A stretch of 64,000 nucleotides of DNA from Promethearchaeota archaeon Loki_b31 (lineage in GTDB: Archaea > Asgardarchaeota > Lokiarchaeia > Sigyniarchaeales > SOKP01), in the NCBI GenBank assembly GCA_005222975.1, contig NJBI01000003.1, positions 32,001 through 96,000 of the forward strand, written 5' to 3'. The translations under genes were made by a program, and so were the position numbers. The notes below the pieces were generated by a model. It was not told the origin of the DNA. It searched no databases and saw only the letters and a program-made list of their open reading frames with translations. This document shows positions 6,941-10,365 of this stretch, one piece after another; the first letter of the stretch is position 1; every line of letters starts with the position of its first letter.

Positions 6941-7939
6941 ATGTTAACTCCAGAACACGTTAAAGAAATTTTAAAAGATTACACCGTTAATCTTCGATTC
7001 CACGCACGCGGGGGGCAAGGAGGCGTTACTGCTTCTAACCTATGCGTCGAAGCTTTTTATGGCTATGGCGTCTGTCAACCGAGATTTGGAGCAGAACGAA
7101 TGGGAAGTCCCACTGAAAGCTATGTTAGGCTTTCTGCGAACTCAGATTTAGTAAGGTCAAATGAACAAGTGTATGGCCCTCATTTCGTAGCTGTGTTAGA
7201 TGAATCGTTACTCTCAGAAGTAGATGTAACTGCTGGCGTACCTAAAGGTGGTTGGTTGATAGTAAATACCGTAATGGACCAACTAACCATTCAAGAAGCT
7301 GTAAAGAGAAAAGACATAAATATTGCTACAATCGATGCGACCCGAATTGCTCTAGATGTTTTAGGTCGAAATATTACAAATACTATTATATTAGGTGCTT
7401 TAATAAGAATCTCTCACCTCTTTACTCTCGAAGAATTATCTAATGCTATCATGAAGCGATTCAAAGGAGCTATAGCTGGAAAAAATATCGAAGCAATAAA
7501 GCAAGCAATTGAAGAAACTTGCATATTTGACATCGGAGTCGAGCCAGATTTTACCGTTGACACTAAAGTACCGTGGCAACAAATAGATTTAGGCTTACCT
7601 GGATATAAGGAATTAGATAAAGCGGGTGTTTGGTATTGCGACGAAAAAGTAATCCCTGTTGGAAGCGACCAAGTTAATACTGGCTCGTGGGGCGAATGGG
7701 ATATGATTTGGGACGCGGAAACGTGTACAAATTGTGCTCAGTGTTGGTTTATTTGCCCTGATTTTGCCATTATTAGAGAAAAAAGGGAAGACGACAAATA
7801 TCATATGATTGGAATTGATCTACTTCATTGTAAATCATGTTTAAATTGTCTAAATATCTGCCCTGTTCAAGCAATAAGTAAAAAATTGAAACAAGGACCG
7901 GCTGCTTGTGCAGTACCAGAAGAAAGTGGAGGTAATTAA
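6941..7939 (+). CDS. 2-oxoacid:ferredoxin oxidoreductase gamma-delta fusion subunit
   Basis: RGGQGGVTA, FGAERMG, NTIILGA (gamma), followed by two CxxCxxCxxxCP ferredoxin motifs (delta). Confidence 0.92.
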   Translation: MLTPEHVKEILKDYTVNLRFHARGGQGGVTASNLCVEAFYGYGVCQPRFGAERMGSPTESYVRLSANSDLVRSNEQVYGPHFVAVLDESLLSEVDVTAGVPKGGWLIVNTVMDQLTIQEAVKRKDINIATIDATRIALDVLGRNITNTIILGALIRISHLFTLEELSNAIMKRFKGAIAGKNIEAIKQAIEETCIFDIGVEPDFTVDTKVPWQQIDLGLPGYKELDKAGVWYCDEKVIPVGSDQVNTGSWGEWDMIWDAETCTNCAQCWFICPDFAIIREKREDDKYHMIGIDLLHCKSCLNCLNICPVQAISKKLKQGPAACAVPEESGGN

Positions 7940-7940
7940 A

Positions 7941-9167
7941 ATGTCAGTAGAACCAATGAAATTATTTTTCAAAGAGATTAAAGAGCCCATCGAGACGGCA
8001 ATGATTGGGAATTACGCTGTGGCCGGGGGAGTTACCCAAACGGACCCTGATGTAATTTGTGCATTCCCTATTACCCCTCAAACTCAATCCGTTGAGGGAT
8101 TATCTGATGTCGTTCATCAAGGAAGATTAAAAGCGGCTTTCGTTAATGTCGAATCCGAATTAGCCGCTATGAGTTATTCAACGGCAGCTTGCGCTGCTGG
8201 TGCCAGAACTTTTACTGCTACAGCATCACAAGGCTATTTATTAATGACTGAAGCCTTGCCTATGGCCGTAGGTTGGCGCGTCCCGTTAACGATGATGATT
8301 TCAGCAAGAGCTTTTAATGCTCCCAATCTTTCTATATGGAACAGTTGGAGTGATTTCGTTTTGTTTGACGTTGGGTGGAATTGTATCGTTTCAGAAAATG
8401 TGCAAGAAACCTACGATGCAGCAATTTTGTCAGTTATGATGTCTGACAATTCTTTGTTTCCAACTATGTTTGTACACGACGGTTTTATTATTTCTCATTC
8501 CGTTCAGAAATTATGGTTAATTCCAGACGAGATTGTACGGAAATTAACGCCAAAAAAGTCTCGCCACACAATTTCAACTGAGCGTCCTGGTGTATGGGGC
8601 GGTATTGTAACACCAAGCTTTTTCATGGAGGGACGAAAAAATCTTGATGAAGCAAAGAAACCCGTGTTAGATATAATGAAAAAGGCGTTCGAAGAATTCG
8701 GAAAAGCGACTGAGCGCTATTATAACTTAATTGAAACCTACAACTTAGATAACTCTTTAAAAACGGCTTTTATTACTATGGGATCGATGTGTGGAAACAT
8801 CATTAGTTGGATGACAAAAAACAAAGATATAGGATTAATCAAAATCAGAGCATACAGACCTTTTCCTTACGAAGAGTTACAAAAGATTGTCCAAGAGCAT
8901 AACATAGAAAAATTAATTATTCTAGAAAAATCAGATTCGCTAAATAATCTTTTACCACCATTTGCCACTTCAATAGCTACGGCGTTATATCCGCTTAAAA
9001 CTCTATTCAGATGCTATATTGTAGGACTAGGTGGGCGGGATGTTACTCGAGATGAGTTCGCGATCGCAAAGAAGAAAATGGAATCTGTTAACGATATGAA
9101 AGGACAGCTCTATAGTTACCTTGGCGTACGGGAGACCAAAGATAAAATCTATGAGGTGAACAGATAA
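7941..9167 (+). CDS. porA: 2-oxoacid (pyruvate-type):ferredoxin oxidoreductase alpha subunit
   Basis: FPITPQT, VESE, TATASQG, DGF, YRPFP, GLGGRD. ATG at 7941 follows a GGAGGT SD; the ORF track start at 7908 overlaps the upstream gene. Confidence 0.92.
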   Translation: MSVEPMKLFFKEIKEPIETAMIGNYAVAGGVTQTDPDVICAFPITPQTQSVEGLSDVVHQGRLKAAFVNVESELAAMSYSTAACAAGARTFTATASQGYLLMTEALPMAVGWRVPLTMMISARAFNAPNLSIWNSWSDFVLFDVGWNCIVSENVQETYDAAILSVMMSDNSLFPTMFVHDGFIISHSVQKLWLIPDEIVRKLTPKKSRHTISTERPGVWGGIVTPSFFMEGRKNLDEAKKPVLDIMKKAFEEFGKATERYYNLIETYNLDNSLKTAFITMGSMCGNIISWMTKNKDIGLIKIRAYRPFPYEELQKIVQEHNIEKLIILEKSDSLNNLLPPFATSIATALYPLKTLFRCYIVGLGGRDVTRDEFAIAKKKMESVNDMKGQLYSYLGVRETKDKIYEVNR

Positions 9168-9168
9168 G

Positions 9169-10254
9169 ATGTCAAAACCAGAAAGAAATGTAATTAAATT
9201 CGAAGATATCTTAGCAAGAGATGGCAAATGTAACGTTTTATTTTTAAACTACGATAACGAAGCTTTTATGAACACTGGGATTCAAGAATCAGGCGCTACA
9301 CCACCTCACGCTTCGACAACCACTGGACCCGGTGGAGAAAAAATTCCCGGTAAAGTTGGTATAAAACAAGATTTAGTTACTCCTTTTGCTTTTTATGGGA
9401 CAAAATCGTTATTTTTAGCAACGGCAAACCCCGCTTATCCAGCAGATTTTATGGGAAAAGTTGCTGATGCGTTAAAGTCAAACGGATCTGCTTTCATTCA
9501 ATCAATAGCTGATTGCATGAGAGGATGGCGACATCCAGCCGAAGACGCCGTGAAAATTTCAAAATTAGCTACAGATTGCGGTTATTGGCCTCTTTACACT
9601 GTTAGAGTAAAAGATGGCATTCCAACATTTTCTTATTATCGTGGATTAGATATAGATAAGGAGAAATTTGTAGAATACTTAAAATCTATGGGTCGGTTTA
9701 GACATCTCTTTAAGCCACAGTTCTTAGAAAAAGAAATTGACGAATTAATTTACTATACTGAACAACGTAACCTTAAACTAAAAGGGCTTATTGAACAGTT
9801 TGGAGCCGAAAAGCCAATAGACTTTTATCAGGTAAATCGAAGAACTTTAGAACCTCAACAACATCTCCATCCAGGACACGGATTATGCCCAGGGTGTGGC
9901 GCAGGAATGGTCTTGAATCAGATGGCTACAGCAGCTACAGCAGTCGCGGGTAACAACATTATTTATGTGAATAATACGAGTTGCAGTGAAGTATCGACAG
10001 CGAAAGATTTTGTGACTTCTTGGAAAGTTCCTTGGGTTCACCACTTATTTGAAAGCGGAGCTACTATAGCTGAAGGAATAAGCACAACTTATAAAATTCT
10101 TAAATCTAAAGGTTTGTTCAATGGAGAGGTACCGTATGTTATACACATTGCCGGCGACGGTTCTACATACGATATTGGATTTCAATTTCTCAAAGCTGCT
10201 CTCATTCGAACGAGTTCTTTCGTAGAAATGAACGAATACTTGAAACAAAATTAA
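9169..10254 (+). CDS. porB: 2-oxoacid:ferredoxin oxidoreductase beta subunit, circularly permuted
   Basis: All PorB motifs present in permuted order: YDNEAFMNTGIQ at aa 28-39, CMRGW at aa 116, GHGLCPGCG at aa 236-244, TSCSE with C272, GDGSTYDIGFQ at aa 329. Confidence 0.92.
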   Translation: MSKPERNVIKFEDILARDGKCNVLFLNYDNEAFMNTGIQESGATPPHASTTTGPGGEKIPGKVGIKQDLVTPFAFYGTKSLFLATANPAYPADFMGKVADALKSNGSAFIQSIADCMRGWRHPAEDAVKISKLATDCGYWPLYTVRVKDGIPTFSYYRGLDIDKEKFVEYLKSMGRFRHLFKPQFLEKEIDELIYYTEQRNLKLKGLIEQFGAEKPIDFYQVNRRTLEPQQHLHPGHGLCPGCGAGMVLNQMATAATAVAGNNIIYVNNTSCSEVSTAKDFVTSWKVPWVHHLFESGATIAEGISTTYKILKSKGLFNGEVPYVIHIAGDGSTYDIGFQFLKAALIRTSSFVEMNEYLKQN

Positions 10255-10365
10255 TTTTTTTTATTCTTTTTTATTCAAAATTATTGCTATCAAGCTTAAA
10301 ATTTCTGTTTTTTAAAGTAAATAAAAATCTAGAAAAAAAAGTAAAAAGAATAAAAAAGAGATTGA

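Follow-up and report, generated by a model that had tools for sequence, protein, structure and literature searches.

A class-wide and apparently undescribed circular permutation in the beta subunit of a 2-oxoacid:ferredoxin oxidoreductase from Lokiarchaeia

Among the thiamine diphosphate (ThDP) enzymes, the order of the PYR and PP domains differs between transketolases, decarboxylases and 2-oxoacid:ferredoxin oxidoreductases (OFORs). These rearrangements indicate that the fold tolerates a rewired connectivity of the chain, and it is whole domains that have been moved in them. The beta subunit described here differs from such cases: its chain is interrupted within the PP domain, at a point separating the two parts of the GDG-x(24-27)-N signature.

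Three groups of described systems can be compared with it. PorB from the four-subunit PFOR of Methanosarcina acetivorans (9bt4 chain C; NF008819) is homologous to both halves of the new chain (E 4.5e-45 in total), with 32% identity in the structural match, and the two proteins have in common the four cluster Cys, the GDG and DNE half-motifs and the place in the operon after porA. However, the order of the lokiarchaeial chain is exchanged at a loop within the ThDP motif, three pieces are additional (a strand and a helix at the N-terminus, a connector of about 40 residues and a tail of 14), and gamma and delta, its partners, form a single fused chain. In the PDB, the sequence that matches best (2e-46) is the beta subunit of the oxalate oxidoreductase (OOR) from Moorella thermoacetica (5c4i, 5exd, 5exe), an enzyme with which the three-subunit layout (alpha, delta, beta) is shared, domains III and V being fused in one chain. 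Nevertheless, the Moorella beta subunit is collinear, the operon described here falls far short of the cut-offs for OOR (194.6, where 590 is required), and its alpha subunit keeps a Thr (T56) in the PITP motif, at a position where the Moorella enzyme presumably has an Arg. The closest canonical beta subunits for both halves (41-42% identity) are those of Por/Vor operons from archaeal metagenome-assembled genomes (MAGs), namely the clusters P0129 (Bathyarchaeia), P0128 and P0132. All three are collinear and belong to classical four-gene operons (gamma, delta, alpha, beta) with separate gamma and delta genes, which argues that the gamma-delta fusion is derived as well.

The gene is located in a window of 64,000 nucleotides (the whole stretch of DNA analysed) from Promethearchaeota archaeon Loki_b31. 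The class-wide conserved circular permutation of this subunit of a central metabolic enzyme is genuine and apparently undescribed: neither a permuted OFOR beta subunit nor a permutation inside the PP domain of a ThDP enzyme was found in the full-text literature, in which subscription journals were not covered. Related to this, permutation is not mentioned in those passages of the Prometheoarchaeum paper that deal with 2-oxoacid:ferredoxin oxidoreductases (PMC7015854), where these enzymes are proposed as the energy-yielding step of amino-acid fermentation in Asgard archaea and are thus central to energy metabolism.

The operon and the order of its beta chain

The genes at 6941-10254 very probably constitute a three-gene operon (fused gamma-delta, alpha and beta) for an OFOR of the Por/Vor type (Table 1). 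The gamma-delta protein is matched by the NCBIfam PorC/PorD models and, over residues 52-313, by OxalOxreddelta, whereas the alpha subunit reaches 297.8 bits with PorA_Arch, whose cut-off is 550. The open reading frame (ORF) of alpha opens at a GTG at 7908, which gives it a 32-nt overlap with the gamma-delta gene. A Met at 7941 (M12 of this ORF) is invariant in the alignment of relatives and lies 1 nt past the gamma-delta stop, just as beta begins 1 nt past the stop of alpha. Alpha probably starts at 7941 and is then a protein of 408 aa.

The beta ORF begins with an ATG, 1 nt past the stop of the porA-like gene, and its start is not in doubt because the frame is open upstream for only 3 codons. 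An intact beta ORF at this distance from porA had already been reported in an earlier note on this DNA, and the re-reading of the sequence gave the same result. Just downstream, on the opposite strand, lies a tandem pair of small paralogous ORFs (79 and 84 aa), each of which reads ..LKDG....L.I.RL...GI....FFIE....GR.E.P.DS..GF.IE..

Table 1. Genes, signals and beta-chain segments of the operon and its surroundings (positions of the window)
Feature	Position	Strand	Remarks
Fused gamma-delta subunit, 332 aa	6941-7939	+	PorC domain aa ~17-198, two-[4Fe-4S] PorD domain aa ~240-315; Pfam POR and Fer4
Alpha subunit, PorA-like, PYR domain and domain II	7941-9167	+	Pfam POR_N 5.5e-54, PFOR_II
Shine-Dalgarno-like GAGGTGA	9153-9159	+	9 nt 5' of the beta start codon, within the porA end; read from sequence
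Beta subunit, permuted, intact ORF	9169-10254	+	361 aa and stop
Beta, new N-terminal segment, aa 1-21	9169-9231	+	AF2 model: strand at 6-10, short helix at 11-15
Beta, old C-terminal half, aa 22-188	9232-9732	+	YDNEAFMNTGIQ, C116 (fourth cluster Cys) in CMRGW, YWPLY, RFRHL
Beta, connector from old C-terminal helix to old N-terminus, aa 189-228	9733-9852	+	modelled helix 187-211 and strand 212-221
Beta, old N-terminal half, aa 229-347	9853-10209	+	GHGLCPGCG, TSCSE, HHLFE, GDGSTYDIGFQFLKAALIR
Beta, C-terminal tail, aa 348-361 (TSSFVEMNEYLKQN)	10210-10251	+	canonical profile extends to q352-353
T-rich tract, terminator-like for an archaeon	10255-10280	+	after the beta TAA; function inferred from the letters only
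Small ORF, 79 aa	10366-10605	-	
Small ORF, 84 aa	10679-10933	-	

The first part of the beta chain contains NVLFLNYDNEAFMNTGIQ (aa 22-39), with YDNE at 28-31, and the CMRGW motif with C116; the second part contains C240 and C243 (CPGC), C272 (SCSE) and GDG at 329-331, followed by a stretch that finishes in ALIR at residue 347. All the motif residues had been numbered in this way in the earlier note, and each was found at its position in the 361-aa chain. When the chain was compared with solved proteins (phmmer against all PDB chains), two swapped, internally collinear matches were obtained: residues 229-347 correspond to 13-127 of 5c4i_C and to 6-115 of 9bt4_C, and residues 22-188 correspond to 130-291 and 119-282, respectively, with E values of about 1e-17 to 1e-25 for each half-match. 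A profile built from 35 canonical beta subunits gave the same picture, since its positions 120-282 align with residues 21-198 of the chain and its positions 5-123 with residues 224-352. These limits put the chain break at about profile position 119/120. It falls inside the ThDP/Mg signature, in the loop that connects the helix after GDG..DIG with the strand finishing in YDNE. As a result, the half-motifs GDG and DNE are about 300 residues apart and in reversed order, instead of 24-27 residues apart.

Judged by these alignments, the protein is a homologue of the OFOR beta subunits of the Por/Vor type (NF008819/NF008818) but not a collinear member of the family. Two segments, each collinear with the reference but swapped, are found in one intact ORF, as is required of a circular permutant, and 9169-10254 is a true circular permutation of a PorB-type beta subunit.

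The permutation defeats routine annotation, and the standard models barely recognise this beta subunit of the class. NCBIfam PorB (NF008819) matches it in two swapped stretches with 216.3 bits, for a cut-off of 405, and Pfam PF02775 (TPP_enzyme_C) covers only residues 20-111, a quarter of the chain, with 23.5 bits, which is 1.6 bits above its cut-off of 21.9. Among the matches listed, all the NCBI-sourced names of the family are "hypothetical protein", and many clusters have no precomputed Pfam hit. As a consequence, the enzyme can be counted as incomplete when metabolism is reconstructed.

Assembly and taxonomic distribution

The genome is a MAG of 99 contigs with 6% contamination, and it could be argued that two porB fragments were joined chimerically during assembly or binning. 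Practically no credence can be given to this explanation. The contig X7, a DNA contig from an independent subsurface metagenome, spans 9247-10087 with 3 differences, and the contig X16, from an RNA library and belonging to a relative about 95% identical, spans 9060-9920, which includes the porA/porB boundary and the connector; both cross the internal junction without joints. The RNA-library contigs demonstrate contiguity but not transcription, as DNA carry-over is possible (the relatives are about 95% identical). Besides, the 361-aa architecture is present in more than 100 independent clusters, and the best 120 matches in a search of 5.8 billion proteins are all permuted (105 of them cover the full length, and 15 are fragments compatible with that order). 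The artefact is ruled out by the bridging contigs together with the occurrence of the swapped order throughout the class, closed genomes included, and the opinion of the earlier note that the permutation is natural was borne out.

The permuted beta subunit was found in 130 of the 161 genomes of the Loki-type class, belonging to all 7 of its families; 35 of the 40 high-quality genomes have it. The carriers include single-contig genomes of 3.3-6.0 Mb (G213, G309, G312, G337 and G380 are single-contig carriers). In a sample of the phylum consisting of 301 genomes, it is present in 58/68 genomes of family f1, 6/7 of f2 and 1/1 of f3. The gene order gamma-delta, alpha, permuted beta is kept across these three families, with the gamma-delta fusion upstream of alpha in their loci, and in its taxonomic distribution the cognate alpha agrees exactly with the permuted beta. 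The source names of the homologues are Lokiarchaeota, Promethearchaeota, Helarchaeota and similar ones.

Outside the class, only one of about 220 other Asgard genomes, G211 (family f24), has a permuted beta. This copy (L023, G211:C23:1-2801) is located on a 2.8-kb contig, it is 86% identical to f1 sequences and it comes from a bin with 8% contamination; a second alpha is located on another short contig of the same genome. It is most likely that this operon is mis-binned DNA and not the product of a transfer. At E<=1e-70 the cognate alpha had no match in the other families searched, except for these contaminant-like contigs. When 1.84 billion representative proteins were searched, 130 of the 150 best matches were canonical, and the only permuted sequences among these 150, P0121 and the truncated P0122, belong to this same family. 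The suggestion that the permutation could be a lineage marker is consequently well supported by the survey: all 7 families of the class have it and the other Asgard families searched do not, apart from the G211 contig. It offers a clean, discrete phylogenetic marker of a class that holds the closed single-contig genomes of the survey, which are probably those of cultured Asgard archaea.

In one Helarchaeota-named MAG the permuted gene is represented by a pair of neighbouring ORFs of the P0121 cluster, P0271 (223 aa) and P0272 (104 aa); a frameshift, an error in the sequencing or a true split of the gene could each explain this.

Origin of the permuted gene

Once de-permuted, the family forms a single group in the tree (SH-aLRT 100). 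Its stem measures about 1 change per site, and it stands apart from the 36 canonical representatives and from the paralogues of the genome itself. The best canonical relatives (P0126, P0128, P0129 and P0132) are shared by both halves, which speaks against a chimera of two different paralogues; the negative rank correlation obtained in this comparison is a selection effect of listing by summed score. According to the scheme proposed here, the permutation would have arisen once, at or before the base of the Loki-type class and together with the gamma-delta fusion or near it in time, and it would have been kept since then by purifying selection.

With regard to the route, a tandem duplication followed by the loss of both outer halves is inferred to be the most likely one, although it is only weakly supported. 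The earlier note had proposed duplication and trimming, and had pointed to ILAR and ALIR as a short terminal redundancy. The support for this redundancy is weak: in the HMMER alignment the C-terminal part passes the break by 4-5 profile positions only, and a longer overlap is seen only when extension is forced in hhalign, where residues 6-21 and 348-360 are both placed, with low posterior, on canonical positions 110-137. Such degenerate overlapping ends are what duplication and trimming could leave behind, but this route has not been demonstrated, and no tandem beta-beta intermediate was found in the best 150 representatives (the "longer" length class was outside this search). In the N-terminal segment, where I9 is more than 90% conserved in the family, a profile-profile extension of low confidence reaches canonical positions 110-119, and residues 1-21 are possibly, to judge from this likeness, a degenerate relic of the post-GDG helix. 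In the same way, the tail (residues 348-361) may possibly be what is left of a second copy's strand and DNE, since its low-confidence hhalign extension reaches 'iYiCyDNEA'.

The gene could also have undergone fission at the GDG/YDNE loop into two ORFs, which then swapped their order and became fused again without any tandem duplication or trimming. This route is rather unlikely, although the absence of a tandem intermediate among the best 150 representatives and the weakness of the terminal redundancy are in accordance with it, as is the presence of the gene as the adjacent ORFs P0271 and P0272 in the Helarchaeota-named MAG. However, that split falls within the already permuted order, the apparent proteins with only the C-terminal half are contig-end fragments or are located on short contigs, and the extra residues at the two ends, whose low-confidence alignments fall on one and the same canonical stretch, are what duplication with imperfect trimming predicts. 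Candidates for a naturally split PorB at the break site (P0209, P0225 and P0226) turned out to be uninformative, because they are contig-end fragments or are located on a 1.2-kb contig. Tandem duplication with loss of the outer halves thus remains the preferred route.

Conservation, structural models and proposed activity

The permuted beta subunit is heritable and is kept under purifying selection. In 36 family members, with identities down to 52%, the residues Y28, D29, N30, E31, N35, T36, G37 and Q39 of the first half-motif are invariant, and so are C116, C240, C243, C272, E274 and G329-D330-G331; the four Cys of the proximal [4Fe-4S] cluster are thus all present and invariant. Pairwise dN/dS values with unsaturated dS are 0.08-0.11, and both halves and the connector are constrained. 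In the connector, whose own values in the unsaturated pairs are 0.04-0.37, L207 and Y220 are invariant. The cognate alpha is also conserved: T56 (in PITPQ), E82-S83-E84 and R134, to which we assign roles in substrate binding and cofactor activation by assumption from PFOR, are invariant in the alignment.

The AF2 model of beta, for which the input alignment consisted of the permuted family and canonical halves, has a pLDDT of 95.6 and a pTM of 0.94 without any weak segment (91-98 in the connector), and besides the helix and strand of the connector it contains two new elements at the N-terminus. PFOR and OOR rank first for this model with both Foldseek and VIA-align, and the latter superposes it on domain VI of PFOR and on the beta subunits of OOR and PFOR with Z values of 15.5-17 and an rmsd of 1.9-3.1 A over 178-190 residues, in support of the part at aa 22-188 as the old C-terminal half. 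Both aligners are sequential and superpose no more than about half of the chain (TMq 0.42-0.46), as is expected when they are applied to a permutant.

The predicted complex of alpha and beta passes its controls, with an ipSAE of 0.79 against 0.00 for the best control; 58 of 80 solved complexes and 2 of 110 mismatched pairs attain this mark. The contact agreement between model runs is at least 98% and the partner pLDDT is 87. In the modelled interface, alpha 81-99 (including the invariant E82-S83-E84) would face beta 285-311 and 339-358; residues 262-347 make most of the contact with alpha, and the tail takes part in it through residues 351, 355 and 357-358. Nevertheless, like complexes have been solved and the result may reflect memory; the model should be taken as a likeness to solved OFORs and not as a proof of binding.

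On this basis, the chain would start at the YDNE strand, with the Mg/diphosphate half-motif, and would run through the fourth cluster Cys to the old C-terminal helix; it would then continue along the connector of about 40 residues to the old N-terminus (CPGC, SCSE, HHLFE) and end at the GDG strand and helix. In the folded subunit, GDG and YDNE are inferred to meet as they do in canonical PP domains, with ThDP-Mg at the interface with the PYR domain of alpha, and C116, C240, C243 and C272 would hold the proximal [4Fe-4S] cluster. This spatial reunion of the half-motifs is an inference from the confidence of the fold and not a measurement. The enzyme would convert a 2-oxoacid and CoA into acyl-CoA and CO2 with the reduction of ferredoxin.

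Whether such an enzyme is catalytic at all can be asked, because the genome contains two further operons of the Por/Vor type, on contigs C75 (L024:2436-5026) and C94 (L025:1576-4710), whose beta subunits are collinear (299 and 313 aa) and reach 369-401 bits with the PorB/VorB models, just below the cut-offs. The permuted beta could be a decayed paralogue, that is, a scaffold or regulator without ThDP, with catalysis left to the canonical enzymes; the long stem branch of the family and the scores of the permuted operon's subunits, far under the equivalog cut-offs, would agree with this. It is nevertheless a very improbable explanation: all the ThDP/Mg and cluster ligands are invariant in the family, dN/dS is about 0.1, the cognate alpha keeps T56, E82-S83-E84 and R134 without change, and the full operon is retained in 130 genomes. 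That the permutation is functional, as the earlier note had supposed, looks right in view of the invariant ligands, the low dN/dS, the confident fold, the kept operon and the predicted interface. Function is strongly implied, with activity being inferred in the absence of biochemical data.

If the permuted enzyme is active, its substrate may be other than pyruvate, as the bit scores suggest (216 against 405 for beta, 298 against 550 for alpha), but its specificity remains unresolved because of the two canonical Por/Vor operons of the same genome. A more speculative and doubtful idea is that the permutation is not neutral. Both ends of the chain would lie at the ThDP/Mg loop and the alpha interface (in the model, tail residues 351-358 touch alpha), where they might change the loading or retention of the cofactor or the assembly of the heterodimer; along with the fused gamma-delta gene and the length of the stem, the permutation might then mark an OFOR specific to Lokiarchaeia, with a substrate or regulation unlike those of the two canonical enzymes. 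In any case, it is a rare natural permutation that cuts the textbook cofactor signature and is yet under strong selection, and it provides a ready-made test of the importance of chain connectivity for ThDP sites.

A subgroup of the family (for example P0093-P0108 and P0120) has, according to the alignment, a conserved YC.DNYCE tail with two extra Cys, which are not present in the beta subunit of the window.
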